Below, piece by piece: positions 2-50,114 of a DNA stretch of 50,131 nt. The notes under the pieces were generated by a model. The model was not told where the DNA came from, searched no databases, and was given only the letters and a program-made list of their open reading frames with translations. The translations under genes were made by a program, and so were the position numbers. Numbering within the stretch: position 1 is the stretch's first letter; every line of letters starts with the position of its first letter. Source of the stretch: a virus (lineage: Duplodnaviria; Caudoviricetes); IMG/VR virus record IMGVR_UViG_3300037608_000205, positions 1 through 50,131 of that record. One strand, 5' to 3'.

Positions 2-1537
2 ATGACTTTTGACCACCACATGGTTTAGGGTGGCCGACCATAGCTTCTCATCAAAGGCTGTGATGAGCTTCTCCTGTTTTCTTAGGGTTTTCAGGAAGGC
101 TTTCATCAGGTTTCGCTTGGCCTTTTTCTGGTCGATGTCGCTTATGAGCGTCTGCAGCCTTTTTTGAAGGGTGTTGTGCTTTTCAGCTAAATGATTATAT
201 TTTTTTGCATAGTCAGTTTGATCGATGGTGGTTCTCGCGTTTTCCGCGATCAGCTTTTCAAGGGCGGTATGAAGCAGTTGCGACTTGACCTCTATTTGTT
301 TGATCTCTTTTTCCTCTTTTGAAAAGTTGGTGATCTTCTTGGTCAGATCATCGTAGCTATTTAGTATCTCTTCTTTATTGTCAATAAGACTGTTGAAGGC
401 TTCCACAAAAGCCTCCTTGATGACTTCTTCTTTCAGATGGGGTGTGGTGCACTTGGCTTTCCTTAAGAATTTGTTGTTGCACTGCCAGATGGTCTGGGCG
501 TACTTGGTGTTGGAGTGCCACACCTTTCTTCCGTAAAACCCACCGCAGTCTCCACAGGTGATCCGACTGGCCAAGCAGTTGATGGCGCTTGTGTACTTTC
601 CCGCCTTTTCCCTTCTTTTAAACTCCGCTTGCACCAGCTCGAAGGTTTCAGGCTCTATGATGGCTTCGTGGCTGTTCTCCACATAGTACTGAGGCACTTC
701 GCCTTCGTTTATCTTTTTCTTATTTGTTAAAAAATTAACGGTGTAAAATTTTTGCAATATGGCAGAACCGCGATACTTCTCATTCCGTAGAATGCTTTGA
801 ACGGTCGTCGCCTGCCATTTCTCTTTGCCTCCTGGTGTTGGGATCTTCTCTGTTGTCAGCATCTTGGCGATGCCTGAAGCGGTCTTTCCTTCCAGAAACA
901 ACCTGTAGATCTTTCTGATAATCTTGGCTTCCTTCTCGACGATTTTAGGCAGTCCGTCCTCGCCTTTCTTGTAGCCAAGAAACTGCTTGTAAGGCAGGCT
1001 AACCTTGCCGTCTGCAAACCGCTTGCGCTGGCCCCAGGTCACGTTCTCGCTAATGCTGCGAGATTCTTCTTGCGCGATCGAACTCATAATCGTGATTAAT
1101 AATTCACCTTTACTGTCCATTGTATAAATGTTTTCCTTCTCAAAATAGACCTCTACATTTTTTTCCTTTAGCTGTCTGACTGTTGTTAAGGTATCCACTG
1201 TGTTTCTCGCAAATCTCGAGACTGATTTAGTGAGTATCAAGTCTATACGACCTTCCACCGCATCCTTGATCATTGTGTTGAAGCCATTTCTTTTCTTGGT
1301 GCTTGTAGCTGATATTCCCTCGTCTGTATACACCTTTACAAAATCCCATTCTGGTTTATCCTGTATATGTTTTGTATAGTAATCAAGCTGGGCGTCAAAG
1401 CTTGTCTGCTGCTCGTCAAAGTCAGTCGATACCCTGGCATAGGCTGCTACTCTTTTCTTTGTTATGGATGCATTGTCTGTCTGGTTGAAGTTGTTTTTAT
1501 TGGCCGGTATGACTCTGACTTGTTTAGCCGTTTGCAT
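2..1537 (-). CDS. Large serine recombinase (partial, 3' end beyond window)
   Basis: Not in the ORF track because it is open at the edge. Manual translation from ATG 1537 (RBS AAGGAG) gives MQTAKQVRVIP...KRVAAYARVST (catalytic Ser), TKSVSRFARNT, recombinase domain, CGDCG zinc ribbon and coiled coil. Confidence 0.92.
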   Translation of the reverse strand, partial: MQTAKQVRVIPANKNNFNQTDNASITKKRVAAYARVSTDFDEQQTSFDAQLDYYTKHIQDKPEWDFVKVYTDEGISATSTKKRNGFNTMIKDAVEGRIDLILTKSVSRFARNTVDTLTTVRQLKEKNVEVYFEKENIYTMDSKGELLITIMSSIAQEESRSISENVTWGQRKRFADGKVSLPYKQFLGYKKGEDGLPKIVEKEAKIIRKIYRLFLEGKTASGIAKMLTTEKIPTPGGKEKWQATTVQSILRNEKYRGSAILQKFYTVNFLTNKKKINEGEVPQYYVENSHEAIIEPETFELVQAEFKRREKAGKYTSAINCLASRITCGDCGGFYGRKVWHSNTKYAQTIWQCNNKFLRKAKCTTPHLKEEVIKEAFVEAFNSLIDNKEEILNSYDDLTKKITNFSKEEKEIKQIEVKSQLLHTALEKLIAENARTTIDQTDYAKKYNHLAEKHNTLQKRLQTLISDIDQKKAKRNLMKAFLKTLRKQEKLITAFDEKLWSATLNHVVVKSH

Positions 1538-14460: not shown

Positions 14461-15573
14461 TTATTTTCTAATATGGATTTGGGTTTTGCCATTCGGTCTC
14501 TTTTGATATTCATTTAGAAACATCTCTAGTTTTTCTGTCAATTCATCTTTGACTTTGCCCTGTGCAATTGTAAAATATTTTTGAAGAATCCTTTCAGTAT
14601 CACGTCCATCTAGATCCGTACTGAATCCTTCCAGATAAGCCTTAGTATTCATTTGTTTGTATCCGATGAATTTACTTGGCGCGAAGCTATCAAGCTCTTC
14701 AAAATAGTACCAATGCCTGAAAAAATTGAGCTTATTTTCGATTGCATCTGATAGTTTCAAACCAGTTAAAAACGTTTTGGCATTTTCCAATACTTCTTCA
14801 TAGGATTCAACGAAAACATTTTCTGAAACCAAGCTTAATGTCGATCCTCTTTTGTTGACAAAGATTCCAACCCAGTCCAGTACAGCTGCGATAACAAACC
14901 CAGGACTGTATGCGGATTCACCCATGGCAATACCGTGAACCTCATGTGCAATATACCCTTCAAGTGAATTCATTGGCAGCTTTTCACTTCCAAGTTTACC
15001 TGCTCTTGCATAGCCCTTGTATAATTCTCCATCCTGTGCAACAGCAATATTGTATGCAGCTATAAAGGCATCCCAAGTCAGCTGATTCGCAACCGGTATT
15101 TTATCGCATTCTAGGCCGTTGCCATCTTTATCAAACCATATTTTGGCTTTGTTGCCGGCAGTTATAAGGTTTATGGTAGCAGTTCCTCCGCTCATGTTAA
15201 GCTTGTCCTTGATTCTTTTGATCACAAAGTGGTCATTCTCATTGATGAGTACAGATCCAATGCTATCTTCATTGTCATCACTCATTGATAAAAAAGCCTC
15301 TTTTTCATCCTTAAGTTCAAGTTTAATGAGTATATCCGATAATATTTGCTTTGCTTTTAAATACGTAATGCCTAGTTGGGCCTGAACATCTTTAAAGCTT
15401 CCTTCATTCAGAAGAAAAAGATTTACATATGCCATTTCCTCTTTTGTTAGAAAAGAGAATCTATTCATATTAAAATCTCCGGTCAAATCCAGCTTACAGT
15501 TATTGCAGCTCAGTTTTGTCACCATCAGTCTTTCATGGCATACCGGGCAAAAACCAACGACTTCTTTTTCCAT
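14461..15573 (-). CDS. Moron: DUF2089-like (Zn ribbon + HTH) N-terminus fused to uncharacterised domains
   Basis: CPVC...CNNC...GSFKDVQAQLGITY DUF2089-like pattern. AT-rich, with own terminator, inserted between two head-tail joining genes. Confidence 0.7.
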   Translation of the reverse strand: MEKEVVGFCPVCHERLMVTKLSCNNCKLDLTGDFNMNRFSFLTKEEMAYVNLFLLNEGSFKDVQAQLGITYLKAKQILSDILIKLELKDEKEAFLSMSDDNEDSIGSVLINENDHFVIKRIKDKLNMSGGTATINLITAGNKAKIWFDKDGNGLECDKIPVANQLTWDAFIAAYNIAVAQDGELYKGYARAGKLGSEKLPMNSLEGYIAHEVHGIAMGESAYSPGFVIAAVLDWVGIFVNKRGSTLSLVSENVFVESYEEVLENAKTFLTGLKLSDAIENKLNFFRHWYYFEELDSFAPSKFIGYKQMNTKAYLEGFSTDLDGRDTERILQKYFTIAQGKVKDELTEKLEMFLNEYQKRPNGKTQIHIRK

Positions 15574-16228: not shown

Positions 16229-17422
16229 CTACGCCTTCTGCTGAAGCACCTTGATGGCTTCTCCCAAGATCAGTTTGCCGTCCAGTCTCTGTGAGGCAAG
16301 GAATCCTACCTGCCCATTGGCGGCGTAGAGCTCATTGAGACGTTTAAAAGTTCTGCCCTGACGGTCTGCAATCCAGTAGTACTTGAAGTCTCCAAAGAGG
16401 ACGGTCTTTGCGGCGGATGCGATTGTCGGCATGTACTGGGATATCAGCACTGGACGGTTGATGATGGTATCAGGGGTTCCAGATTGGACAGAGGGCTGCC
16501 ACAGATACTGCCCCTGACCATCTTTCAGTTTTCTGATGGCTTTGACGGTCGCGTCATTCACTAGGAAAGTTGCTTTTTTTCTGTAGGCTGACTTCAGGCT
16601 GTGATAAAGGTCCAGCACCTCATCAATGGTAATGGCTGTCGCACTGGCGGTAGTAACACCAAGACCTGCTCCTCCCGTTGTATGAAGAAGACCTGTCGGT
16701 TTGCTGCTGGCGTTCCCGGTCAGGAAAGCCTCCTCTTCAGCGGCGCCGATTCTTCTGGCAAACTCAGTGGCGATATAGCCTTCAAGGTCAAAATAGCTGT
16801 CATTGAGAAGCTCATCGGAAACCTTCAGCATGGTCCCCAGTTTATAGGCTGACAGGGTCACCTGTGTGAAGGCGTCATCACTCTCATTAAAGGCTCCCTC
16901 TTCATCCATCCAGGCTGCAGATCCGTGGCTTGCAACCACTGGAATCTTTCTGTCCCCATGGCTTGTGGTGATGACATTGCACAGATTTCTCAACACGTTG
17001 GCTTCCTGTAGGGCTTGAATCAGTTGTTTCTCGTACTCATCCGGCACAAGGTAGCCGCCTTCGGAATCGGTCCCGACCTGAAGGGCGTTCTGAACGGAAA
17101 GGTTCAGCTTGTTTCTCATGGCACCCCAGAAAGCTATTTTGTATCCACCTGACGCCCTACCGGTTTTCTCTTCGATCATCTTCTCCGGTCTTGAGGCAAG
17201 GGGTTTGCTGATGGCAGCTGACAGCTCTCTGTCCATCATTTCCTGACGCTCAAGGCGATCGATTTCCTTGCCAAGGCTGACCACGTCATCCTCCATTTTT
17301 TCATAGACCGCATTGTCCTCCGGTTTGATCAGACCGTTCTCCTGACGATGCTCGTCAAGAAACACCTTGGCTTGCTCCCATACTTGGGCGCGTTTTTCTC
17401 TTAGCTCTTGAATTCTACTCAT
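16229..17422 (-). CDS. Major capsid protein, HK97 family
   Basis: N-terminal delta coiled coil; GGYLVP, LKDGQGQYLWQP, FGDF motifs. Start at 17422 after GGAGG. Confidence 0.95.
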   Translation of the reverse strand: MSRIQELREKRAQVWEQAKVFLDEHRQENGLIKPEDNAVYEKMEDDVVSLGKEIDRLERQEMMDRELSAAISKPLASRPEKMIEEKTGRASGGYKIAFWGAMRNKLNLSVQNALQVGTDSEGGYLVPDEYEKQLIQALQEANVLRNLCNVITTSHGDRKIPVVASHGSAAWMDEEGAFNESDDAFTQVTLSAYKLGTMLKVSDELLNDSYFDLEGYIATEFARRIGAAEEEAFLTGNASSKPTGLLHTTGGAGLGVTTASATAITIDEVLDLYHSLKSAYRKKATFLVNDATVKAIRKLKDGQGQYLWQPSVQSGTPDTIINRPVLISQYMPTIASAAKTVLFGDFKYYWIADRQGRTFKRLNELYAANGQVGFLASQRLDGKLILGEAIKVLQQKA

Positions 17423-17427
17423 ATTCA

Positions 17428-18240
17428 TTACCTCCAATTTTTAATCAACTCCAGCCGTCTTTCCAGCTGGGCAATAGGGATCTGGTTTACTGAAACTACA
17501 GGATCTTTAGGATTTTCATTAACCTGTTCCACGCTTTTTTCCGGTTCTTTTGTCTTATCTTCATCCTCGTTGGCCTTAAGATATTTCATCCTCGCCTGAA
17601 TGCCAGGCAGTTTGTTTCTTAGGGCGTTTGTCACTGTCATCTGGTCAAAGATAAAACCGTTTGATTTTTCATCCGCCTGCTCAGATTCATAGAGAATTTT
17701 ATCGGCAAACTTAAGCTCGACGGCCTTGTGGGCACTCATCCAGGTTTCGGCGTCCATCATGTGTGATATCTTCGCTCTGGATAGGCCCGTCTTTGTCTGA
17801 TAGGCATTGACAATGCTCTCCTTCACTTCACTCAAGAGGTTGATTCCCACTTGAAGATCCGCCACCTCGCCGGCAATAAGCATGGCCGGGTTGTGGATCA
17901 TGATCACAGACAGCGGAGAAACACACACCTCATCGCCTGCCATGGCAATCACTGAAGCGGCACTCGCCGCCAGTCCATCCACATGGACACTCACGTTACC
18001 GGGATACTCCTTTAGCATGTTGTAAATCTGCGCCGCGGCGAAGGTGTCGCCACCTGGCGAGTGTATCTTCACGACGATGTCGTCTGTCTTTGGCCCACTT
18101 GCATAAAGCTCTGTCTTGAATTGTTTCGGGGTGATGTCGTCGTCAAACCAGGAAGACTCCGCAATATATCCTTCAAGGTGCAGGGTTCTTACCGTTGGCT
18201 TATCGGCTTCATTCACCACCCATCGCCAAAATTTATCCAT
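17428..18240 (-). CDS. Prohead maturation protease, ClpP-like
   Basis: IHSPGGD, DGLAASAAS (Ser), MIHNP (His), ETWMSA motifs. Confidence 0.92.
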   Translation of the reverse strand: MDKFWRWVVNEADKPTVRTLHLEGYIAESSWFDDDITPKQFKTELYASGPKTDDIVVKIHSPGGDTFAAAQIYNMLKEYPGNVSVHVDGLAASAASVIAMAGDEVCVSPLSVIMIHNPAMLIAGEVADLQVGINLLSEVKESIVNAYQTKTGLSRAKISHMMDAETWMSAHKAVELKFADKILYESEQADEKSNGFIFDQMTVTNALRNKLPGIQARMKYLKANEDEDKTKEPEKSVEQVNENPKDPVVSVNQIPIAQLERRLELIKNWR

Positions 18241-18265
18241 CTAATCGACCTCCTTTTTTGGCATT

Positions 18266-18295
18266 AAAAAAGCACTCCCCATTTCGAGAAATGCT
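18266..18295 (-). terminator. Intrinsic terminator after cassette copy 1
   Basis: Minus strand AGCATTTCTC-GAAAT-GGGGAGTGCT-TTTTT (G-U pairs). Confidence 0.65.
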
Positions 18296-18450
18296 GTTGA
18301 TGCTTCTAATATGATTTTATCGTTGTCCACAGATAAAGGCCAAACTATATGCATCTTTGTAATAGATTTTCATTTCTAGATTTCTACTAGATTTTTTCAT
18401 TAAGAATCATTGCTAATGTGTACAAAAGATTATCTTCTTATATAGTTTTA

Positions 18451-18842
18451 TCAACTGTATATTTGTTTATCGAGAGAATCAAACGCCTCAAGCTGCTCTT
18501 GCATACCTAAATCTAACTCAGTCTTAATATAACTCCTTTTTTAATTTTGTTATAAAACGAAAATCAGAGAAGAGTCTAGAAACTGTTACAAGCAATCCAC
18601 CAATATCTAGCTGTTAAGGATTTTCAGTTATATATGAGACAGAAATATTACTACTTGTTGCAATAACGTTTGAATACATAAGTACTTTTCTAGTTCTGAC
18701 TTCATAGAACTCTCGGTCTCCATCAACCTCATGATCATAAAATAATCCATGCAACAATCCAATAATCATATTGACAATTATCGAAATCCCTGCTGATGCG
18801 CTTATAATTTTGGTGTCTCTAGCAAAACACAATGCATCATAT
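18451..18842 (-). pseudogene. Truncated remnant (3' part only) of the 466-aa gene at 23330-24730
   Basis: 18531-18842 aligns to 23409-23720 with 17 mismatches in 312 nt by manual count. About 1 kb of the 5' part is missing; AAA->TAA nonsense change at 18614-18616; +1 frameshift near 18530. Confidence 0.88.
18531..18842. repeat. Direct repeat copy 1 (about 94% identical to 23409-23720)
   Basis: Manual ungapped alignment. Confidence 0.9.
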
Positions 18843-19421
18843 CACTTTCAAGACTGCGTATCCTAAATCGTGCTTAAGGTCCTTTATTGCCTGATTTAAC
18901 AAAGTATTTAAACTGTTCAGGTACTCAATGCGATCTTTACTACTATCAGCTTCGTCTTTCAAGGCCTGTAAAACTGCATTATGTTTTTTTAAAGCTTCTT
19001 GGTATAAACGTTCTTTCTCTTGTTTCAACTGTTTATGCTTCAAATATACAGCAAATCGGACACCGCCTGCAGCTAAAATCGTAACTGGTAATGCTAACAC
19101 AAATATGCCTGCTACTGAAGCTGAAACAGCACCATTAAGAAGCGTTGTTGAAACAAACCCCCCTGCTGTAGCAAGACCTGACATAATACCAGGACCGCTC
19201 AGTCCGACTGTGCCTAAAGCATACAATGCTGTAAAAGATCCAACAGCACCAATTCCAGCTCCTACAACTCCCATTAATACTTCTGGAATAGCGCTCTCTC
19301 TAATCGTCCTCTTTTTATCATTTAAAGCTTCAGCTGATTCGTTTACAACATCAACCACATTTTGCAGAGCCTCAACACTCTGAAATTTCATTTCTTTCTT
19401 CTTTTTAACATAATCGCCCAT
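18837..19421 (-). CDS. Moron gene A, long form: Gly-rich hydrophobic hairpin + coiled coil; paralog of 24742-25182
   Basis: Shares FQSVEALQ, ESAIPE, EKERL, YLNSLN, DLKHDL with 24742-25182; long GxxxG-rich membrane segment. Confidence 0.8.
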   Translation of the reverse strand: MGDYVKKKKEMKFQSVEALQNVVDVVNESAEALNDKKRTIRESAIPEVLMGVVGAGIGAVGSFTALYALGTVGLSGPGIMSGLATAGGFVSTTLLNGAVSASVAGIFVLALPVTILAAGGVRFAVYLKHKQLKQEKERLYQEALKKHNAVLQALKDEADSSKDRIEYLNSLNTLLNQAIKDLKHDLGYAVLKVI

Positions 19422-19542
19422 ACTTATTCTCCTTATAATTCTCTGATCATAACTAGAATCTAATTACACTCTCAATTCTACATCAAGCTTTAAATTTCAT
19501 TGTTCATTAATAGTTAAGAAGAAATAAAGCGATGTCTTGTAA

Positions 19543-19571
19543 ATTTTAACATGTACTGCATTCCCTTTCAA
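19543..19571 (-). promoter_or_regulatory. Sigma-A promoter with extended -10 for cassette copy 1
   Basis: TTGAAA-17bp-TAAAAT with TGn; same architecture as 25302-25330. Confidence 0.7.
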
Positions 19572-19780
19572 CAACAACCTTCTTGATCATTATTCTAACA
19601 CCTAGATTCTAAGTTTATAAATAAAGAATCGCTTTGAAAGTTATGAAACATATGCCTTCCATCTACATTAATATTGAATTTATTGGGCGAAAAATTGAGT
19701 TTGTTATAATTATTGTGAAAACATACTTAAAGAGTTATTTAGTTTTTTTTACACTTAGAATCTAGATTATACTCTTATCA

Positions 19781-21013
19781 TCACGGCTCACCACCACTCT
19801 CACCCAAGGCTTTCTTTGCATAAGCTCCAGCCAGCTTAAGGGGCAGCATGTTGCCATTGACCAGATACAGATCACCACCGTCCTCTTCAGAGATGGGATC
19901 CATGTTCTCCATCCGCCTTACATCATTGACGGAGAAGAAACCATTTTGAATGCCGATGGCATAACCATCCATCCTGGACTTATAATCCCCTCTCATCAGT
20001 GCCGATGCGTTGAAGGACACGAAGCAATGGCCTTTCTCTTTTTCAAGAAAGAGCTTCTTGTTCATAGCCTGCTCTATTCGAACCAGCCAAGGCCGGATGG
20101 TATGGACCACAAAGCTGATGGACTGATTTTCGATGTTACTGAAAGAACTCTTGCTAAGATCCGCCACCATATGGGGTGGCACTTGAAAGATTCTACAAAT
20201 TTCCTCTATCTGAAACTTCCTCGTCTCTAGAAACTGGGCGTCGGAGTTTGGCATGCTGATAGCTTGGTACTGAAGGCCGTCCTCCAAGACCGCTACCTTG
20301 TTGCTGTTGTTGACACCGCCATAGGCCGATTGCCACGCGTCCCTCACCTTTGTTGGATCCTTTATGGTGCCTTGAGTGGAAAGAATGCCGCTTGGCGTGG
20401 CGTTGTTGGCAAAGAACCTGCCGCCATACTCCTCGGCGGCAATGTTAAGCCCAATGGCGTTTTTTGCAAGGGCCACCGGCGAGTAGCCTATGACGCCGTC
20501 AAAGCCAAGGCCCGGTATGTGCAGAATATCATCCGGTCCCAAATAGTGGGTGGTGCTTTCTTTTCGGTATGAGTAGTAGAGATTACCTTTGCTTTCTCGG
20601 TCCACTGTTATCTTATCCGGTAGAAGGGGATACAGATACTTCACCTCTCCCTTGCCGTTTCGTATGATCTGGCAGTATGCGTTTCCCCATAGCAGCAGAT
20701 GGGTCAACATGGTCTCCCTTAGGGTAAATGAGGTCATCTCGGGATTGGGTTCATCATGCAATACCTTGTACAAGGGATGAGTGTATATTTTTTCCTTCCC
20801 TTCACCTTGATACCGATAGGTGTGAAGCGGCAATGACGCCACGGTCTCCGCGATGATTCTCACACAGGCAAAAACCGCGGTGGTCTGCATGGCACTTCTT
20901 TCGTTAACCACCTTACCTGATACGCTTGTTCCCATGTAGAAATTTGGAGCGTTGCTTACACTGTCTGTAGGCTCCGCCTTGGCTCTTTTAAGCCATTTTA
21001 AAAAGTCTGCCAC
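19781..21013 (-). CDS. Portal protein, HK97 family
   Basis: AVFACVRIIAETVASLPL, LLWGNAY, HIPGLGFDG, ICRIFQVPP motifs. Confidence 0.95.
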   Translation of the reverse strand: MADFLKWLKRAKAEPTDSVSNAPNFYMGTSVSGKVVNERSAMQTTAVFACVRIIAETVASLPLHTYRYQGEGKEKIYTHPLYKVLHDEPNPEMTSFTLRETMLTHLLLWGNAYCQIIRNGKGEVKYLYPLLPDKITVDRESKGNLYYSYRKESTTHYLGPDDILHIPGLGFDGVIGYSPVALAKNAIGLNIAAEEYGGRFFANNATPSGILSTQGTIKDPTKVRDAWQSAYGGVNNSNKVAVLEDGLQYQAISMPNSDAQFLETRKFQIEEICRIFQVPPHMVADLSKSSFSNIENQSISFVVHTIRPWLVRIEQAMNKKLFLEKEKGHCFVSFNASALMRGDYKSRMDGYAIGIQNGFFSVNDVRRMENMDPISEEDGGDLYLVNGNMLPLKLAGAYAKKALGESGGEP

Positions 21014-21027
21014 GATTTATTTACCTC

Positions 21028-22584
21028 CTATCCTAAAATGATCATATCGCGTTCATCATAAATGGAGCCTTCATCATCCGGTGGATTTACCGCAGCTCTT
21101 GCTAGTCCCATAATGAGGGCGACAATGCCATCAATCTTGTCAGCAGACTTTTCCTTATCCACCTTGATGTTGCCAGCCGGGTCTGTCCGGACCACAATAT
21201 TGTCCGCCATCCACCGTAGGACCGGATGACCGCCATGGGCAATCTGTTTGCTCAATATAAGCCGCATAAGATCCTTTGTCGGCGGGGACATATCCTTGAA
21301 GCCTTGTCCAAACGGAACCACTGTAAATCCCATCCCCTCAAGGTTCTGACTCATTTGAGTAGCACCCCATCGATCATAGACAATCTCTCTTATATTGTAC
21401 ATCTCGCCAAGGCGCTCGATAATCTTCTCGATATAGCCGTAGTGGACCACGTTCCCTTCTGTAAGAAGAATTCGTCCTTGCTTGTGCCAAATGTCATAGG
21501 GAACGCTATCTCGCTTAACCCGCTGATGAAGAGTTTCTTCCGGGATCCAGAAGAAAGGCACTACCTGGTATTTATCCATTTCATCCTCCGGCGGAAACAC
21601 CAATACAAATGCGGTGATGTCCGTGGTGGATGAAAGGTCCAGGCCGCCATAGCAGACGCGTCCTTCCAATTCTTTCGGGTCTATAGAAAAATTACATAGG
21701 TCCCATTTGTCCATGGGCATCCATTTGATTTCCTGCTTTAGCCACATATTCAGTCTAAGCTGTTTAAAGAGAGCCAGATCGGCTGGATCATCTTTGACCT
21801 GGTTATAATGTTCCCTGACCCGCTCTATGGAAATGGTATGGTTAAGGCTTGGGTTGGCCTTATACCAATTGCTTTCATCCGCGATATCCGCATCGTCCTC
21901 CAGCCCGTAAATAATGGACAGGAAGGCTGGATCTACTCTTTTACCTTCCAAGACATCCTTTGCCTTTTGGTGCATCTCCCAGCCATAACCGGAGAGCTGG
22001 TTGCCGGCGGTGGTGAGGTATAAAAAGAGGGGCTGTGTTCTGGCATCGCCTGATCCGGTGGTGAGCATCTTCGCCAAATCCGGATTGGGATAGGTCCAGA
22101 TCTCATCCAGGATGACACAGGAGGCGTTGATTCCAGACTTTGATTTGACATCAGAGCTTAATACCTGATAGAAGCTGCCTGTCTTAGGGTAGGTGATGCG
22201 TTTGGTTGACCTTACAAGGTTTGTCACCTTTGACAGGGTGGGATTTCCTTCCACAAAGTTCATGCTGGTGTTGAAAATGATGCTGGCCTGTTGTCTGTCA
22301 CAAGCTGCCACATACACTTCCGCATTGGGTTCGCCGTCGGCTAGAAGCATATATAGTGCAATGGCTGCGCCGAGCTCACTTTTTCCATTTTTCTTTCCGA
22401 TCTCCACATAAGCGGTGCGGAACTGACGGGTGCCATCTTCTCTTAATGTTCCAAATAGTTTCTTCACCAGATCCTTCTCCCAAGTAAGTAGTCTGAAAGG
22501 CTGTCCGGCCCATCTGCCTTTTGTCAGCTTTAGTTGCTCGATAAAATCAATGGCATGATTGGCATGGGCTTCGCTATAGGACAT
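21028..22584 (-). CDS. terL: Terminase large subunit
   Basis: Walker A GKKNGKS, Walker B VILDE, nuclease GGLDLS and KIDGIVA. Confidence 0.96.
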   Translation of the reverse strand: MSYSEAHANHAIDFIEQLKLTKGRWAGQPFRLLTWEKDLVKKLFGTLREDGTRQFRTAYVEIGKKNGKSELGAAIALYMLLADGEPNAEVYVAACDRQQASIIFNTSMNFVEGNPTLSKVTNLVRSTKRITYPKTGSFYQVLSSDVKSKSGINASCVILDEIWTYPNPDLAKMLTTGSGDARTQPLFLYLTTAGNQLSGYGWEMHQKAKDVLEGKRVDPAFLSIIYGLEDDADIADESNWYKANPSLNHTISIERVREHYNQVKDDPADLALFKQLRLNMWLKQEIKWMPMDKWDLCNFSIDPKELEGRVCYGGLDLSSTTDITAFVLVFPPEDEMDKYQVVPFFWIPEETLHQRVKRDSVPYDIWHKQGRILLTEGNVVHYGYIEKIIERLGEMYNIREIVYDRWGATQMSQNLEGMGFTVVPFGQGFKDMSPPTKDLMRLILSKQIAHGGHPVLRWMADNIVVRTDPAGNIKVDKEKSADKIDGIVALIMGLARAAVNPPDDEGSIYDERDMIILG

Positions 22585-22620
22585 CGGGTCTTCCTCCTTT
22601 TATGTGTTCTATTCATCTTC

Positions 22621-23121
22621 TTAATCTTCCAGCAGCTCTTCGACACTTGGAACGTTTGAGAGTAAGGCTTCCATGACACTGCCTTCGATGGTGTTTCCGG
22701 CATTGCTGATATTTAGCCGGCTTCTTGCCGATGGACTTAAACCCAACTCTGAACAGAAATTTCGCATCTGCTTTAAATTCTGCTGGGCGATAGAGACTTG
22801 AGGTATCTGCTGGATGTATCCTGAAGCGGTCTTTAAGATGGAGCCGTGTTTCGATATGAATTCCTCGGCTTCCTTCCATCTGGCATAGGCCTGGCAGTAG
22901 CCTGCAAAAGCGGCCATATCGACTTGTGTCAGCAAACCCATGGTTTCCAGTTCTTTTGAAAGCCTTCGCCATTCTTTCTTAGCGTCCGGCTCAAGCCATG
23001 ACGGGCACTTGGGGGCTTGTTGTTTCGGTTTCGGTTCATTTTTATTCAGCGGTCTTTTTCCAGGGTTTCCTTCCAACTCCTTAATTGCTGTTGGTTTGGG
23101 TGGTCTTCCTCGACCTGCCAT
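22621..23121 (-). CDS. terS: Terminase small subunit, P27 family
   Basis: GRPPKPTA..LEGNPGKR, CPSWL, ELGLSPSAR motifs. Confidence 0.93.
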   Translation of the reverse strand: MAGRGRPPKPTAIKELEGNPGKRPLNKNEPKPKQQAPKCPSWLEPDAKKEWRRLSKELETMGLLTQVDMAAFAGYCQAYARWKEAEEFISKHGSILKTASGYIQQIPQVSIAQQNLKQMRNFCSELGLSPSARSRLNISNAGNTIEGSVMEALLSNVPSVEELLED

Positions 23122-23149
23122 AAGCTTTCACCTCCTTTTCTCTGCATAG

Positions 23150-23178
23150 AAAAAGGAACTCTCATCTTGAAAGTCCCT
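23150..23178 (-). terminator. Intrinsic terminator after cassette copy 2
   Basis: Minus strand AGGGACTTTC-AAGAT-GAGAGTTCCT-TTTT. Confidence 0.7.
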
Positions 23179-23329
23179 GTTTGAGCTTCTATTTTCTATT
23201 TATACTTTTTCGCGTCTATACAAAACCCGCCTCATTATGGGGAGAATTATTTACCTTTCGATTACTGCTTCCTCTATTTTTTTACTAAATAAAAAAATCT
23301 CGCTTATTCAAAGAGGCTAAATAGTATAA

Positions 23330-24730
23330 TTAAATTATATATTCAGTATACAATCTGTCTGCTTCATCAAGCTCTTTTTGCATACCTTCTTCTAATTGAC
23401 CGGTTATAAACTCCTTTTTTAATTTTGTAATAAAACGAATATCAGAGAAGAGTCTAGAAACTGTTACAAGCAATCCACCAATATCTAGCTGTTTAGGATT
23501 TTCAGTTATACATGAGACAGCAATATTACTACTTGTTGCAATAACGTTTGAATATATAAGTACTTTTCTAGTTCTTGCTTCATAGAACTCCCGGTCTCCA
23601 TCAACTTCCGGATCATAAAATAATCCATGCAATAATCCAATAATCATATTGATAATTATCGAAATCCCTGCTGATCCGCTTACAATTTTGGTATCTCTAG
23701 CAAAACACAATGCATCATATTGGTTTTTATAAAGATTTCCTGCCAAACTTTCTGAAAATGCTCCTAAAAACGGAACAGGCAATCCTAATTTTGTGTATTT
23801 ATCAGATTCATAATGAAGAGCTTGCCTGAATAATGCAGCAGGAAGTCTATGAAAATCATCTTTTATCCAATAATGCGCTTCTCCAAATACCTGAATAATA
23901 AAAACCGTCTCATCTGTGAATTTTCCGTTTTTTATACGATATGATGTCAGATTATTCAATGTCAAAGTATCTGTTAATATATTGGCAGTTCCAAACACCC
24001 ATCCTAAAATAGGATCATGACCTAATGTCTTATATCTATGGTTTTTACCTTCCATATTAATACCTATAGCAGGAGAACCTGCCGTAACATCATAAGGAAC
24101 TCCCTTATAAAGTATCTCCTTCCATGACTTGCCTTCTTTTTCTCTTAGTCTACTACCTTTACTATCTTTACTCGTATCCCAATCCTTATGTTTATCAGCA
24201 AACACGTCTTTTTTCTCTTTGACTTTTGCATCTCCTGCTTTATCATCAATTCTAGTATTAGAATCAATTTTCTCTCCAAGTTCTGGCAAAAGCACCCATT
24301 TTATCGTTTGTAAAGCTGTTGCAATAAATAAAAATATTATATCCGTTCGATTCATTTTTACTTTTGAAGCAAACTCATCCTTAATACGTTCAAGGTCATC
24401 GAGTGCAAATGCAAATTCGTGGCTAGATAGAATATCTTCCAACTCAACTTCATACGGAATCATTTCATTAGCTTCTTCAACTAGAACTTCCCAATCTTTT
24501 AATGTTGATAATATGACTAATCGTTCTAATTGTTCACTTCCGCTAGGCTTAATAATCTCATCTAAATCATATCCTAAGTCTTTAAGCAATGCCTCACTTG
24601 ATTCAATACTAGATTCAGCTTTTCTTTTGACTTTCTTATTTTGGTCGCTTATTGACTCTGACAACATCTCATTCATTTTGAGAACTTTATTCTTATTTTT
24701 TTCATCTTGAGTGTACTTATATTTTCCCAT
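23330..24730 (-). CDS. Moron gene B: uncharacterised 466-aa protein (N-terminal coiled coil, HRYKTLGHDPILG motif, hydrophobic C-terminal helices)
   Basis: Long AT-rich ORF, 11 nt downstream of gene A; no enzyme motif recognised with confidence. Confidence 0.8.
   Translation of the reverse strand: MGKYKYTQDEKNKNKVLKMNEMLSESISDQNKKVKRKAESSIESSEALLKDLGYDLDEIIKPSGSEQLERLVILSTLKDWEVLVEEANEMIPYEVELEDILSSHEFAFALDDLERIKDEFASKVKMNRTDIIFLFIATALQTIKWVLLPELGEKIDSNTRIDDKAGDAKVKEKKDVFADKHKDWDTSKDSKGSRLREKEGKSWKEILYKGVPYDVTAGSPAIGINMEGKNHRYKTLGHDPILGWVFGTANILTDTLTLNNLTSYRIKNGKFTDETVFIIQVFGEAHYWIKDDFHRLPAALFRQALHYESDKYTKLGLPVPFLGAFSESLAGNLYKNQYDALCFARDTKIVSGSAGISIIINMIIGLLHGLFYDPEVDGDREFYEARTRKVLIYSNVIATSSNIAVSCITENPKQLDIGGLLVTVSRLFSDIRFITKLKKEFITGQLEEGMQKELDEADRLYTEYII
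23409..23720. repeat. Direct repeat copy 2 (about 94% identical to 18531-18842)
   Basis: Manual ungapped alignment. Confidence 0.9.
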
Positions 24731-24741
24731 TGCAAACGCCC

Positions 24742-25182
24742 TTATGTTACATATTCCAAATCATGTTTGAGATCATTAATTGCCTGCTGGAGCAAAATAT
24801 TGAGGCTATTTAAATAGTTAATTCGCTCATTATTAGAATCAGATTCCTTTTTCAAAGCTTCTAAAATTTCATTATGTTTCTTTAATACTTCTTGAAACAG
24901 ACGCTCCTTCTCTTGTTCTAATTGCTTATACTTCTTATACTTCAGATGAGCTACCATACCTAAGCCGCCGGCAGCAAGTGCAGCTAAAACAAAAACGCCA
25001 GCAACTGCTACAATTCCACCAGTAAAAGCAACTCCTAATAGTTCTGGAATTGCACTTTCTGTTATCGTTCTCTTTTTGTCTTTAAGAGCTTCATCTGATT
25101 CGTTAACAACACTAACGACAGTCTGCAAAGCCTCAACACTTTGAAATCTCATATCTTTCTTTCTCTTTATGTATTCACTCAT
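24742..25182 (-). CDS. Moron gene A, short form (Gly-rich segment internally shortened)
   Basis: Paralog of 18837-19421 lacking roughly 45-50 residues of the hydrophobic Gly-rich stretch. Start MSEYIK aligns with MGDYVK. Confidence 0.78.
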   Translation of the reverse strand: MSEYIKRKKDMRFQSVEALQTVVSVVNESDEALKDKKRTITESAIPELLGVAFTGGIVAVAGVFVLAALAAGGLGMVAHLKYKKYKQLEQEKERLFQEVLKKHNEILEALKKESDSNNERINYLNSLNILLQQAINDLKHDLEYVT

Positions 25183-25301
25183 AATCAACCCCCCCAAGAT
25201 TTGATATATTATTCATTCCTAAACTCCACTTCAATTTTTAAATTACAATTGAATTCGCTATTCTCAGGCCTTTTACGAGGAAATTAAGCAATTGATTCCA
25301 T

Positions 25302-25330
25302 ATTATAACATTTATTAAACCCTCTTTCAA
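25302..25330 (-). promoter_or_regulatory. Near-consensus sigma-A promoter with extended -10 for cassette copy 2
   Basis: TTGAAA-17bp-TATAAT preceded by TGT. Confidence 0.78.
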
Positions 25331-25619
25331 TAAATTCAGCGTGTTTCAGTGCGGTTATTCCAACAACCCTTAACTTTAAAAGTGCTTAATAAGCCTCAAG
25401 TTTAAGCAGAAGTAGTCCTGGAGTATTCCATTACTTCCTTTCGAAACTCAACATATGTGTTTTTCATATACTCTCCGATAAGGGTATTGTTTAGGCAGTT
25501 ACATAATGCAAAACCATCCGTTTTGATAATCTTCGTACCAAGAAACACATATTTCAACAAATCCAGTGACGTATGCTTTTAATTCGTGTCTGCATAAAAT
25601 CCGCCTTAATGGTGCAATG

Positions 25620-25829
25620 TTATTTACCTCTGATCCCTTTGAAGTTGTAATTTCCTTTTTTGATTTCCTCCTGGTCTGCCTCGACCGCTTTTTTATACTC
25701 GGGACTTTTTGTTTCCTTCTCCTTGCAGCTCATGCATAGACAATCCTCGTTGAACATAGACATGATGCGTCCACCTTCCAGGTTGCAGCAGCAGCGGTCG
25801 CAGTATTTTTGATTGAAAAATCGATCCAT
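25620..25829 (-). CDS. Small Cys-rich phage protein
   Basis: CDRC and CMSC pairs; RBS GAGG; co-oriented with neighbours. Confidence 0.7.
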   Translation of the reverse strand: MDRFFNQKYCDRCCCNLEGGRIMSMFNEDCLCMSCKEKETKSPEYKKAVEADQEEIKKGNYNFKGIRGK

Positions 25830-31046: not shown

Positions 31047-32381
31047 TTAATTCATAAGTCCAAGTAGCCGAGTATTAATTGATTCTGGACATTCGAACTT
31101 GTCGTTGTTCAACCAACAAATCAGGATATTCCTGTCCTTCAAAATATAATCTAATATCCACGACTCATTTGGTCGTTTATTAAGAACAATACACAATTCA
31201 GCGTCACTCATATTATGAAGAAATCTATATTCATAAAGCTGTGCGATGGCCTTCCGTATTTGCTCACACTCATTGGAATTATGTATCGATTTCATCTCAA
31301 AGATAATATTCATCTCATCTTGAGCAATGAACAAATCGATCAGGTTGTTATTCAACGGTAAAAAACCTGTCCCGACTATTTTACTAGCCATTGTATTCAC
31401 CAACTGATTGTGAATAATATTTGCTCTTTCTAATTTAATATGTGTTTCAATACTTGAAATGACTGATTCTGCCTGAAAAGCACTTCTAACTTCGCCAAGA
31501 TTTTCACGTTCATAATCAAATACAATTGTATGTATAGACCAATCAATACTATTAAAATTGTCTTTTGATAAAACTGTCCCATCGGTGAGTACTAAATTAC
31601 AGTTTTCAAGTTTATTGCTGATTTTTAGCTTTTGCGACTCAGTCATTGCGACACCTCTCCGTATGTGGGAGCCAATTCTAGTTATTGTATCCTTATTTGC
31701 TAAATTATCTTCTTTTTTGATAATTGGCGTTTGAATTCTAGTGATTTCCCAGTTTCTAGCTTCGTCGTTAAGATACACTATAGCGTGATTGATTCTTGCC
31801 AAAAAATCTGCTTTTTTTAGCATATCAATAAATTCATTTTCTTTTTTGAGAAAGTCAATTTCACTAATTACACCTTTGTTAAATTGTTTATACAATCCCG
31901 AAAAATTGTTAAATTTTTGTGCTATCTGTATAACTTCGATATCATCAATAAAACCGAATGCTTTATATATAATAAACCAGTCCCACTGATCTTTTCTTTC
32001 ACAACGATTAATAAGACCTTTAATCTCGGAAAAGTGTGCTCTTTCAATATGCTCAAGCTCTTGATTTTTGATTAAAATTAGTTTTTTAAAATAAAGTAAT
32101 GCATCAAAATACCTGTTTAGAGTATTCGGTTTTGGTGGAAATTTGCCAAAATTTGAAATGCCAATAACCATATATTTCGAATCCTGTTTTTTTCTAACTA
32201 TCCAGCCCTCAATTTGATCACCAACTCTAATCAATTTAATGGTATTTCTAAGTCCAGAATTCCATTGCATTTGACAACACCAATCGCTATCATCAATATC
32301 CACATCAAACTTCATTTCACCATTCACGTTTTGAATTTTACTAATCTTCCCAACTATTGAATCTCCAATATGATAATTCAT
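31047..32381 (-). CDS. Moron: S1/OB-like N-terminus + C-terminal PD-(D/E)XK nuclease
   Basis: YHIGDSIVGKISKI...RVGDQIEGWI S1-like pattern; IDLF...FEMKS...QIRKAIAQLYEY restriction-like motif. Very AT-rich; start after GGAGG. Confidence 0.68.
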   Translation of the reverse strand: MNYHIGDSIVGKISKIQNVNGEMKFDVDIDDSDWCCQMQWNSGLRNTIKLIRVGDQIEGWIVRKKQDSKYMVIGISNFGKFPPKPNTLNRYFDALLYFKKLILIKNQELEHIERAHFSEIKGLINRCERKDQWDWFIIYKAFGFIDDIEVIQIAQKFNNFSGLYKQFNKGVISEIDFLKKENEFIDMLKKADFLARINHAIVYLNDEARNWEITRIQTPIIKKEDNLANKDTITRIGSHIRRGVAMTESQKLKISNKLENCNLVLTDGTVLSKDNFNSIDWSIHTIVFDYERENLGEVRSAFQAESVISSIETHIKLERANIIHNQLVNTMASKIVGTGFLPLNNNLIDLFIAQDEMNIIFEMKSIHNSNECEQIRKAIAQLYEYRFLHNMSDAELCIVLNKRPNESWILDYILKDRNILICWLNNDKFECPESINTRLLGLMN

Positions 32382-32566
32382 CACTACCTCCAATACATCC
32401 CAGTGTACTAACAAATAGTACCACAATTCAAGTTATTTAAATAGTTATATTGGATTCTAATTATACACTTATATTGGATTCTATTTATATATTTAGTGAT
32501 AATTAACATTAAAGAAACAGATATTTTAGCTTCCGTGTGGAATAAGTCATCTTCAGATTGAAAAGA

Positions 32567-46098: not shown

Positions 46099-46169
46099 GT
46101 TGATATAGAGTGATGCTACATTCTAATTTCGCTCGGAAGCTGCTATCAAATACTAAATGGAGTGTCTCA

Positions 46170-47417
46170 ATGCTAATGATTATGGTAAAACAAGGTTATA
46201 TTGTAGTGGATGACGACGACAATTTGATATATGACGATGTCAATGAACATGAGTATCTATTCAATTTTCTAGACGAAGATTTGAGCACTGCCGCCAACCT
46301 CTTCGAAGAAAGCTTTTATGCAATTCTTAACCACTATCACCCAGATCAAGATGATTATCCGGATATATCCGATCATATGTATTTGCTGGAGGAAGGCTTG
46401 AAAGAAATACATCCATTTCTCCAATATTCTTATGACGACTTTCTGTTCAATTCTATCGGTGATTTTTTGAATGCCAACTTAATACACCAATTGAATGGGA
46501 ATGGAAGCCATACCTTTTCATCATTGCTAGATGAATTTCTTTATAACGACTTATTCAAAAAACTGTATCCCAATTCTTATGATAAGTTTGATGAGAAGGT
46601 TTCTAAGTTTTATAAATCATACTACTACAACGCTCTAGACGAACCTGATATAGATGCCTCATATATTCCCTTACCTCCCCAGGGCTTATATGATTTGATA
46701 GACCTGCAAAATCAATTGCGTAAAATGGTATTCTGGATTCTGAATCCCTCAATCGATCACTTAAATGAATTGTCCACCGATGAAAGAATTGTTGCATACA
46801 ACATTATATGTGGAAAACAATTTGGTTCCAATCCTGTAAGTTTTTCTAAAACATTCAGTTTTTCAAACACCAATCAAGTTCAAAATGATAATAGATATGA
46901 GAGTCTGATTGACCTTCATAACCATCCTGACAGTATTGGAGCGGAAGAGATCGAGGAGTTAAGGAACGTTGTAGAGCAAGTTAAAAACACTAATGTTAAA
47001 GGACTGGTTGAAACATATGAAGTGAAAGTGTTGGCGGACGTACTTTTTTATCAAGTTTATCATATGGTTTTGTATGAAGAGAAAGTCAAGAAATGCAGGA
47101 ATTGCGGAAAGCATTTTATTGTCAGACATTTGAATGTTGAATACTGCAATCGAAAAGTCAAATCTTTGAAGAGCACTGAAAAAAACAGCACCTGTTTTGA
47201 TATAGGATCAAAACTGGCCTATCAGAAGAAACTAAAAGAGGATCTGCCATTGCAATACTACAACAGATCCTACAAAACTCATTACGCTAGAAGAAAAAAC
47301 AGTAAAATGTCTCAATCCGATTTCTATGAGTGGCAACAGGAAGCCAAGGCTAAACTTGATGCCGTTAGATTGGGTGAGTATGATTTTGAAGCATATAAGG
47401 TGTGGCTAAAAAAGTAA
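46170..47417 (+). CDS. DUF6076-like protein (C-terminal Cys cluster)
   Basis: KKCRNCGKHF...EYCNR...TCFDIG...YKTHYAR. Start at 46170 chosen for RBS GGAG (track start 46110). Confidence 0.68.
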   Translation: MLMIMVKQGYIVVDDDDNLIYDDVNEHEYLFNFLDEDLSTAANLFEESFYAILNHYHPDQDDYPDISDHMYLLEEGLKEIHPFLQYSYDDFLFNSIGDFLNANLIHQLNGNGSHTFSSLLDEFLYNDLFKKLYPNSYDKFDEKVSKFYKSYYYNALDEPDIDASYIPLPPQGLYDLIDLQNQLRKMVFWILNPSIDHLNELSTDERIVAYNIICGKQFGSNPVSFSKTFSFSNTNQVQNDNRYESLIDLHNHPDSIGAEEIEELRNVVEQVKNTNVKGLVETYEVKVLADVLFYQVYHMVLYEEKVKKCRNCGKHFIVRHLNVEYCNRKVKSLKSTEKNSTCFDIGSKLAYQKKLKEDLPLQYYNRSYKTHYARRKNSKMSQSDFYEWQQEAKAKLDAVRLGEYDFEAYKVWLKK

Positions 47418-48606: not shown

Positions 48607-49218
48607 CTACTTTTTCACCCTTGACTTCACAGCTTCAAACTTCATCGAGCCTCTTGATTTTCTACCAGTAAAATAGTTTCCTTCGAGTACCATCGGATTG
48701 CTTATATTCAGCATTGCTGTTCCATAGTGCATTGGGCTTCGGTCTTGAATTTCTGCTCGAGGATCATTCTGGTAAGTATAGATTAGGTATTGAACGCTCT
48801 GTACCTTGCCAAATGAAGCAGTCAAACTTCTGCTAGTGCTTTCTTCTGTTTTTAACAAAATCGCCACATTCAAGAACGTCTGATCAATAACAATTTCTCC
48901 AAAACGCTTTGTACTATCATAATCCGATATGAACGTCCCACAATAATTCTTTGCAAGTACAGGCACATCATTCATCCAACATAGCCATTTCCACTTCCAT
49001 GCCCATTTATTAAATATCGCCATTAAAATAGCCGCAATACCAATAGCTTCACCGATAAATCCAAATGAACTATAACTAAGATTTAAAACATGTCCAGCCT
49101 CCCACATGTTTTTTACATCAGACCATGAAATGAGGTAACGAACCAGTGTAAGAATTGCTGTTAGCCAAATACTAATATTGACAAATCTCTTGACATTTGC
49201 ATCCATACTTAACCTCAC
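48607..49218 (-). CDS. cap15: CBASS 2TM-beta-barrel effector (Cap15 / S-2TMbeta-like)
   Basis: Two TM helices, W-rich FNKWAWKW, then IDQTF, YTYQNDP...HYGTAML...LEGNYFTGR beta domain; overlaps the CD-NTase stop. Confidence 0.85.
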   Translation of the reverse strand: MRLSMDANVKRFVNISIWLTAILTLVRYLISWSDVKNMWEAGHVLNLSYSSFGFIGEAIGIAAILMAIFNKWAWKWKWLCWMNDVPVLAKNYCGTFISDYDSTKRFGEIVIDQTFLNVAILLKTEESTSRSLTASFGKVQSVQYLIYTYQNDPRAEIQDRSPMHYGTAMLNISNPMVLEGNYFTGRKSRGSMKFEAVKSRVKK

Positions 49219-50114
49219 TTGAAGTCTATGTAATTATACATGTTGTATAGGAAGAGTTTTGTATCTTCCGGTGTCCATTTGCGTCCAGAATGAAACAGGT
49301 ACAAACGTTCACTAACTTCTCCCCATTGTTTGTGTTTCTCATCTTTAATTGCATTCCATAAAAAAACGATGACGTTTTGAACAGTTTCAACCCAGGTTTT
49401 ACCTGCCATGATAGTCCCATTCGGTACATTCCAAACGAGACATTCAATCAAAAATGACGTTATTTTATCACCGTCCGCCTTTCCATCACCAACCATATCA
49501 TTGCGTATGTGCTTCATGATTCGAACGAGCTTCTTATATTCGTAGTTAGTGCTATTATTCTTCTGCTTGCCATTGCTGATGTGATCTTTAGGATAATTAA
49601 TTACCTCAGTACCATCGTTTGAAAAGAACTGAATACCCTCTACATATTTTCCAGAATCTGTACTACTTAGAATTTTATAATCCCTATACTGGAAGGCAGG
49701 AACAATATCTGCATTTATATGATAGCTATTAGCCTCAATATTTATACTCTTATTCCCAACGTTAATTACATAGTCTCCAAACTTTTTCTTTAATGCTTCA
49801 CCAATATAAGTTTTATAATCAGGATAAGTAATCGAGCCCTCTGTATATCCGTAATCCTTATCTGTCTTTCCATCAACATAATTGCAATAAAACGTAGATG
49901 TCAACATCACGCAAATATCCACATCGCTATTTTGTCTGACATTAGTATTATTTGCATAGGAGCCTTGTGCAAAGATCTCCATCGTACAATCCGTCAACTT
50001 ATAGTACGATGTTACAGCATCTTTAGTCATTAGAACTGCATTTTCAACACGCTGCTCTTCAGTTTTGGAAAGCGGTGACGTCCATGATGCAAAAGTTTCT
50101 TCTGTATATTTCAT
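49215..50114 (-). CDS. cdnE: CBASS cGAS/DncV-like nucleotidyltransferase, CdnE-like
   Basis: QGSYANNTNVRQNSDVDI (GS + DxD), ADIVPA third Asp, INYPKDH, YKKLVRIMK, SFLIECLVWNVP. Confidence 0.9.
   Translation of the reverse strand: MKYTEETFASWTSPLSKTEEQRVENAVLMTKDAVTSYYKLTDCTMEIFAQGSYANNTNVRQNSDVDICVMLTSTFYCNYVDGKTDKDYGYTEGSITYPDYKTYIGEALKKKFGDYVINVGNKSINIEANSYHINADIVPAFQYRDYKILSSTDSGKYVEGIQFFSNDGTEVINYPKDHISNGKQKNNSTNYEYKKLVRIMKHIRNDMVGDGKADGDKITSFLIECLVWNVPNGTIMAGKTWVETVQNVIVFLWNAIKDEKHKQWGEVSERLYLFHSGRKWTPEDTKLFLYNMYNYIDFK

Follow-up and report, generated by a model that had tools for sequence, protein, structure and literature searches.

Background

Bunzi has been reported to be an experimentally validated defence system for which a role in membrane surveillance has been proposed, and one of its two proteins, BnzA, is given two predicted transmembrane (TM) helices in a figure legend, as far as the accessible part of the original report goes (Millman et al. 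2022, bioRxiv 10.1101/2022.05.11.491447). The accessible parts of the papers on this system also describe BnzA as a TerB-domain protein; our search of the literature for Bunzi, BnzA and BnzB returned no mechanistic study. Here we describe a two-gene element, A followed by B, that occurs twice in the virus record IMGVR_UViG_3300037608_000205; "the window" below means the whole stretch of DNA that was analysed, which is this entire 50,131-base record, estimated to be complete. In copy 2 a short form of the first gene (A-short) precedes an intact B, and in copy 1 a long form (A-long) precedes a B pseudogene (Table 1). Our best explanation, which we hold to be reasonably probable, is that both cassettes are horizontally acquired, minimal two-gene modules of the Bunzi type residing in a temperate phage.

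Identity of the two proteins

B aligns with the PADLOC model of BnzB (PDLC03834) at E 6.9e-36 and 122 bits, residues 10-456 being matched to positions 45-495 of the 504 in the model, and a search of the phage's own genome with the BnzB model gave E 3.9e-37. All ten of the B-like proteins from related loci that were compared match BnzB only, and three of the ten, encoded next to true BnzA genes, score 141-163 bits, as against 122 for the B of the window. B is a member of the BnzB family.

The relation of A to BnzA is seen at the level of profiles. An A-family profile of 28 proteins was compared with the canonical 540-aa BnzA of locus L065, whose gene (PADLOC E 2.9e-147) adjoins one for BnzB (E 6.3e-155). 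With hhalign, positions 17-178 of the A family were paired with residues 282-444 of this BnzA (probability 97.2%, E 3e-11), and the glycine-rich motif AALY..G.S..GITSGLA is common to both; a loop that is missing from A-short (see below) is also conserved in canonical BnzA. By this match and the shared motif, A corresponds to the core of BnzA, with its membrane hairpin and coiled coil; the N-terminal ~280 residues of BnzA have no counterpart in A. At L065:1463-6068 the canonical BnzA and BnzB genes are accompanied by an extra B-like gene of 401 aa. The preliminary description had concluded that the pair could not be assigned to a named system. That conclusion is not borne out, in view of the BnzB match of B and the likeness of A to the BnzA core, by which the element corresponds in part to a system already described.

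At least 1728 homologues of B were found among the candidates scored, and at least 1445 of A-short. Of the 66 invariant columns in alignment A2 of B, many hold polar residues (His, Asp, Arg, Lys), which suggests that B has a specific activity and does not simply form a pore; none of the structure, profile and ESM Atlas searches returned a fold or family that would point to a particular activity. Three stretches of B are candidate hydrophobic helices. The predicted model of B reached a predicted local distance difference test score (pLDDT) of 72.9 and a predicted template modelling score (pTM) of 0.42. Its best VIA-align Z score, 8.9, was obtained with a designed helical protein and lies within the noise for helical models, while the ESM Atlas, PDB and structure searches with B gave hypothetical proteins or generic helical matches only. 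Searches of Pfam, NCBIfam and PHROG with A yielded nothing beyond sub-threshold coiled-coil and membrane noise. The proposition that A evolves much faster than B was dropped, A-short being 76% identical over shared columns to its nearest relative, P0122, and B 81% identical to P0002.

Linkage and spread of the module

The linkage of the two genes was assessed in a genomic sample of 80 loci from several phyla, each with a relative of B, in which A-like genes were counted with the A-family profile. An A-like gene lies immediately upstream of B in 52 of these loci and immediately downstream only in 4; in one locus it is present only as part of a canonical BnzA, and in the remaining 23 it was not found with this profile. 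Three of these 23 (L051, L059 and L063) have an upstream gene that matches PADLOC BnzA, and two more (L067 and L081) have an upstream gene 39-47% identical to the BnzA type of those three. The upstream A proteins are mostly 170-207 aa long, and the loci belong to Bacillota, Bacteroidales, Treponema, Desulfovibrionaceae and others. The regular co-occurrence of the genes, together with the hydrophobic segments of their products (two in A-long and the three candidate helices in B), supports a conserved two-gene module with hydrophobic segments, in line with this part of the preliminary description.

Relatives of B elsewhere adjoin genes of PDC-M09, JukA and GmrSD/HEC-06, a distribution that fits a module shuffled among defence loci. 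These neighbours and a pair of genes in the same phage resembling a cyclic oligonucleotide-based antiphage signalling system (CBASS) place the module in a defence context. At one such locus, L061:3393-6113, the B-like gene is accompanied by JukA and by a gene for a DUF697-like protein. Among viral contigs, a scan with the single B protein found nothing. In two viral loci (L162:5001-6834 and L163:1330-2733) a relative of A-long, 55-60% identical to it, is followed by a B-like gene that is 23-26% identical to B.

Taken over the whole sample, the BnzB family is most often paired with a hairpin protein of ~180 aa and not with the large protein described as containing TerB. The small protein would be equivalent to the membrane core of BnzA, so that a minimal two-part core might be easier to study than the full system. 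Rule-based finders that need both genes would probably not call the module of the window, and a substantial proportion of Bunzi-like loci is likely to escape the rules in current use.

The two insertions

The nearest phage in GenBank, PV036459.1, has a terL 91.5% identical to that of the window and lacks both cassettes, having only short intervals at the corresponding sites (Table 1). Among 78 related phage loci with both a portal and a head protease gene, 75 have 109-199 nt between these genes and the other 3 have 334-931 nt; a match to A-long or B was found in none of 80 related phage loci. The guanine-plus-cytosine (GC) content of insertion 2 is 0.34-0.35 and that of both inserts together covers 34-37%, as against 48-51% for the surrounding backbone. 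The lack of the cassettes in PV036459.1, the short gap between portal and protease genes elsewhere and the low GC content argue that the cassettes were inserted; horizontal acquisition is the best explanation we can offer for them, and it is held jointly with the Bunzi-type reading as one proposition that we put above even chances.

The preliminary description had pictured each cassette as a promoter, two genes and a terminator. Both promoters, of the form TTGAAA-17 with an extended -10 TG, were found again, and the two copies can be aligned with each other in their promoter and leader regions; a scan of the whole window gave 25 sites as compared to 18.8 +/- 5.1 in shuffled sequences, which is not significant by itself. 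The terminators fared otherwise. The two terminator-like hairpins lie outside the insertions and are kept upstream of the same two genes, terS and head protease, in the cassette-free PV036459.1; they are elements of the phage backbone rather than parts of the cassettes, which were inserted just upstream of them. These two similar elements, each a hairpin plus T run, mark the insertion sites and may serve the late operon as regulatory terminators. At another place in the same block, between terL and portal, PV036459.1 has a 508-aa hypothetical gene (L170:7681-9207) where the window has none; the terL-portal site is another variable site of the packaging block.

Contigs assembled from the coded sequencing runs X1, a possible source, and X2 span copy 1 and, in part, copy 2; they show the same arrangement and differ from the window at 0 positions. 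Runs X3 and X4 cover small shares only. One contig of X2 (depth 11.1, side 36) links position 19578 to 25369 with 20 other letters between them, both points being just upstream of the two cassette promoters; this junction may represent another element with a similar promoter region, or a rearranged form.

Composition and history of the two copies

That the cassette is present twice, as the preliminary description had stated, is evident from blastn matches between positions 18488-18842 and 23367-23720 (91.3% over 355 nt, E 9e-144), 19265-19407 and 25029-25169 (81%), and 18859-19041 and 24752-24934 (73%), a similarity far beyond chance. The further claim that copy 1 consists of a 194-aa A and a pseudogene of B, and copy 2 of an intact 466-aa B and a shortened A, is borne out as well.

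In copy 1 the A-long open reading frame (ORF) is intact and retains every conserved family residue, with hydrophobic segments at residues 48-66 and 92-127. Its C-terminus carries four extra residues, LKVI, where relatives end in ...DLGYAA. Directly behind it stands the remnant of B, which begins at the third base of codon 337, the first 1010 nt of the gene being gone. The LKVI end of A-long at the junction and the start of the remnant at codon 337 suggest that a single deletion removed the end of A, the spacer and those 1010 nt of B. Over its first 312 nt the remnant is 94.2% identical to B (18 substitutions), with a synonymous divergence (dS) of 0.10 and a ratio of nonsynonymous to synonymous change (omega) of 0.45; with its in-frame stop and its indel, this B must be considered clearly dead. 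The predicted structure of A-long has a mean pLDDT of 58.7, falling to 30-40 in the hydrophobic region, a quality that does not suffice for a fold search; a prediction of the A-long and B complex, which scored 0.00 and was run without controls, weighs neither way. A search of Rfam with positions 18000-25800 gave a lone match inside the A-long gene, CRISPR-DR65 (E 0.049; 30.5 bits against a cut-off of 43), that was taken as chance.

In copy 2, A-short and B have the same orientation, B starting 11 nt downstream. If A-short is begun at a TTG at 25197 the ORF (24742-25197) amounts to 151 aa; gene callers and homologues (P0121) support the ATG start given in Table 1. Depending on the start, A-short is 43-48 aa shorter than A-long, and it is 36 aa shorter than P0122 (182 aa). 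It has one hydrophobic stretch (residues 48-86). Neither the conserved loop GLSxxGIxSG nor the first of the hydrophobic helices is present, and of the 35 columns that are nearly invariant in the A family it lacks 7-8. The deletion is in-frame and private: of the 120 best listed homologues of A-short, two are A-short itself and A-long, and the remaining 118, encoded outside the window, measure 172-211 aa. Outside the deletion A-short has diverged only a little further than A-long (76% identity to P0122 for A-short and 79% for A-long over 143 shared columns), and for 24 of 26 relatives A-long is the closer of the two over these columns.

The preliminary description had spoken of reciprocal degeneration of the two copies. 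For copy 1 this stands with regard to B, and the loss from A-short is indeed a derived one. That A-short is a degenerate gene is less well founded, given its intact ORF, its strong promoter, its retained identity to P0122 and the existence of loci, 7 of the 80 sampled, in which a short A of 109-150 aa is the only partner of an intact B.

Short forms of A also occur side by side with long ones. In a Lachnoanaerobaculum metagenome-assembled genome (L035:3997-6419), a single operon encodes A1 (183 aa), A2 (141 aa) and B (472 aa); the segment absent from A-short is absent from A2 too. The A2 type comprises 21 clusters of 126-168 aa at 55-99% identity and seems to be a conserved, maintained lineage. 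From their equal longest contigs (28403 and 7550), short and long A forms appear to share contigs, and two further loci (L013 and L014) have a second A-like gene, of 151 aa, near B. The operon of L035 and the maintenance of the A2 lineage provide a natural precedent for one B with two A variants, as the preliminary description had envisaged, an arrangement that might also apply to the present phage.

The two A genes of the window differ at a proportion of synonymous sites (pS) of 0.71, which means that these sites are saturated, and omega between them is 0.087; they diverged long ago under purifying selection. This saturation stands against the low dS between the remnant and B, which argues that the B sequences are recently related, or were gene-converted, and that the A genes are not. 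The two copies thus form a mosaic. With both lengths of A and a single B in the same genome, the phage offers a natural experiment.

Proposed mode of action and alternatives

We favour the following account of the element. Copy 2 is an intact operon with its own promoter, A-short and B, and copy 1 has kept its promoter and an intact A-long after the internal deletion in B, the rest of that gene having decayed since. The most likely function is defence: expressed from the prophage, the module would act at the cell membrane to shield the lysogen from infection by other phages, in the manner published for Bunzi. The glycine-rich hairpin would seat A in the membrane, its two helical arms lying in the cytoplasm, and A might hold or regulate B; B, in which a polar core (HRYKTLGHDP among others) is conserved and two or three helices are hydrophobic, would be the effector when infection disturbs the membrane. 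Its partner could be A-short alone or both A proteins. The feature itself is real and of the Bunzi kind, a short-A variant without the N-terminal part of BnzA.

Several observations weigh against this account. The PADLOC model of BnzA matches A-long weakly (E 0.0011) and A-short not at all, a search of the phage's own genome with that model returned nothing, and hhalign detected no similarity between the A family and a second type of BnzA (the L051 group). Since A is without the ~280-aa N-terminal part of canonical BnzA, the module may have a different working mode. Pfam did not report TerB even in the canonical BnzA that was scanned, so that the name of this domain rests on the papers. For B, PADLOC supplied the BnzB match, and Pfam, NCBIfam and PHROG provided no family, a profile search of PDB sequences no relative of solved structure, and Foldseek with the predicted model nothing at E <= 0.001. 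A profile scan of viral contigs revealed 6 loci for B-family patterns and 2 for A-long, so that such modules are rare there. A lactococcal Bunzi homologue, moreover, gave no protection against the phages tested, according to the part of the source available (PMC11381338).

B might need, or be tuned by, both hairpin proteins, forming a three-component system spread over two loci, in which A-long, made from a separate promoter at a distance of 4 kb, provides the full hairpin with the GLSxxGIxSG loop and A-short is a specialised second subunit; we regard this as possible and on balance unlikely. It is consistent with the A1-A2-B operon and the loss of the same segment from its A2, with the maintenance of the A2 type and its apparent sharing of contigs with long forms, and with the second A-like genes of L013 and L014. 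The absence from A-short of nearly invariant positions, including a motif conserved in BnzA, the complete set of conserved residues and strong promoter of A-long, and the low omega between the saturated A genes point the same way. Two A-like genes were nevertheless present in only 3 of the 80 loci, a short A is the sole partner of B in 7 of them, and the low omega mostly reflects ancient history and not the time since B was lost. If such a system does exist, a long-plus-short pairing for one BnzB-type effector could have arisen independently at least twice, in a single operon in the Lachnoanaerobaculum-type lineage and in this phage through a private deletion and the loss of one B, the two loci acting in trans as one three-part system; this we propose tentatively, as an outcome that we would not expect. 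A two-A arrangement would also mean that the core Bunzi machinery can do without the part of BnzA in which TerB is said to lie. It is also conceivable, with a probability that we place well short of even, that copy 2 works alone and copy 1 is a relic whose A-long is an orphan that has not yet decayed. The nonsense codon, indel and relaxed omega of the B remnant, the conservation of A-short outside its deletion and the existence of modules with a short A only would agree with this, while the persistence of the 585-nt A-long ORF and its promoter, during a time in which the remnant gained 18 substitutions, a stop and an indel, is suggestive of the contrary.

A role outside defence, as a membrane toxin-antitoxin or addiction pair, as an accessory of lysis or superinfection exclusion, or as a decoy (the orphan A-long being a phage-made inhibitor of Bunzi-like systems of the host), seems to us improbable. 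A sub-threshold resemblance to holin and spanin families of PHROG (best E 0.0017), a likeness to the A subunit of the binary toxin alpha-xenorhabdolysin in NCBIfam (18 and 14 bits), the lactococcal result mentioned above and the location of copy 1 inside the late block of packaging and head genes might be cited for it. All of the holin, spanin and xenorhabdolysin matches are, however, below curated thresholds (the cut-off for the last being 125 bits), the sole strong match is to a defence family, BnzB, and the family is mainly chromosomal and spread across phyla in the manner of defence genes.

The phage record and its other genes

The coordinates of the features are collected in Table 1. The carrier of both cassettes is a temperate phage, marked as such by its serine integrase, with at least one known defence system. 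The CBASS-like cyclase and effector pair spans 48607-50114, at the far end of the record from the integrase. Replication genes and a ParB-methyltransferase are also present in the record, and the genes of the packaging and head block (16229-23121, minus strand) match PHROG families at E 9.5e-60 to 2.5e-176. Three other stretches of low GC content hold large ORFs, at 14461-15573 (minus strand, 370 aa), 31047-32426 (minus strand, 459 aa) and 46110-47417 (plus strand, 435 aa), for which PADLOC and PHROG gave no match; these ORFs may be further morons.

Table 1. Positions of the genes, insertions and putative control elements of the window
Feature	Position	Strand	Remarks
Serine integrase	2-1537	-	runs off the window end; phrog_95, E 1.6e-144
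Major head protein	16229-17437	-	PHROG
Head maturation protease	17428-18240	-	PHROG
Terminator-like hairpin upstream of head protease	18271-18295	-	kept in PV036459.1
Insertion 1 (copy 1)	18345-19808	none	low-GC moron between portal and head protease; 1464 bp vs 45 nt in PV036459.1
B remnant (pseudogene)	18488-18842	-	codon 337 onwards; TAA at codon 413; 1-nt indel further on
A-long	18837-19421	-	194 aa, full length; helix at the N-terminus, two hydrophobic segments rich in glycine, coiled coil at the C-terminus
Promoter-like site, copy 1	19543-19571	-	TTGAAA-17-TAAAAT, extended -10 TG, 10/12
Portal	19781-21013	-	PHROG
terL	21028-22584	-	PHROG
terS	22621-23121	-	PHROG
Terminator-like hairpin upstream of terS	23154-23178	-	kept in PV036459.1
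Insertion 2 (copy 2)	23182-25618	none	low-GC moron; blastn vs PV036459.1 (L170), 2437 bp vs 68 nt
B	23330-24730	-	intact, 466 aa
A-short	24742-25182	-	146 aa from ATG at 25182
Promoter-like site, copy 2	25302-25330	-	TTGAAA-17-TATAAT, extended -10 TG, 11/12
CBASS-like 2TM effector	48607-49218	-	PADLOC E 1.7e-69
CBASS-like oligonucleotide cyclase	49215-50114	-	PADLOC E 2.1e-112

Comparison with known systems

The hydrophobic hairpin of A has a weak local likeness to that of LeoBC of the dynamin-like system named Eleos (E 3.7e-4 and 1.1e-3), and the A-like proteins of L010 and L056 match it in the same way; no GTPase domain is present in A and only a short stretch is matched, so that one membrane module is resembled and nothing more. 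A connection of another sort is seen with the PADLOC candidate PDC-M09, whose A and B genes (E 6e-101 and 6e-161) stand directly upstream of a B-family and then an A-like gene at L056:2602-6933, and whose PDC-M09A contains a short hairpin-like stretch that is similar to the A profile (hhalign 78%, E 1.9e-5). The PDC-M09 models did not match the A or B of the window at E <= 1, and the association was seen in L056 only. Dionysus, with DinA, the TerB-like DinB and the pore former DinC, is likewise a membrane-linked defence system, in which a membrane-anchored protein is paired with a membrane effector of several helices, as far as the accessible part of its description allows the two to be compared; it has three genes and is a functional analogue only, likened to the present module by description rather than by sequence (bioRxiv 10.1101/2025.09.30.679545).

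The closest of the described systems is Bunzi. The proteins differ in that A measures 146-194 aa as compared to ~540 aa for BnzA, lacking both the N-terminal ~280 and the last ~100 residues, and a full-length BnzA with an N-terminal TerB-type domain is therefore not what the module encodes. In the other respects considered the two correspond. B is homologous to BnzB over nearly its full length, and A matches residues 282-444 of BnzA, including the glycine-rich, two-helix membrane segment. The two hydrophobic segments of A-long, of which A-short has one, find a counterpart in the two TM helices of BnzA, to the extent that the accessible part of the Bunzi report describes them. As in Bunzi, the genes are adjacent and co-oriented, A lying upstream of B, with A-short ending at 24742 and B starting at 24730.

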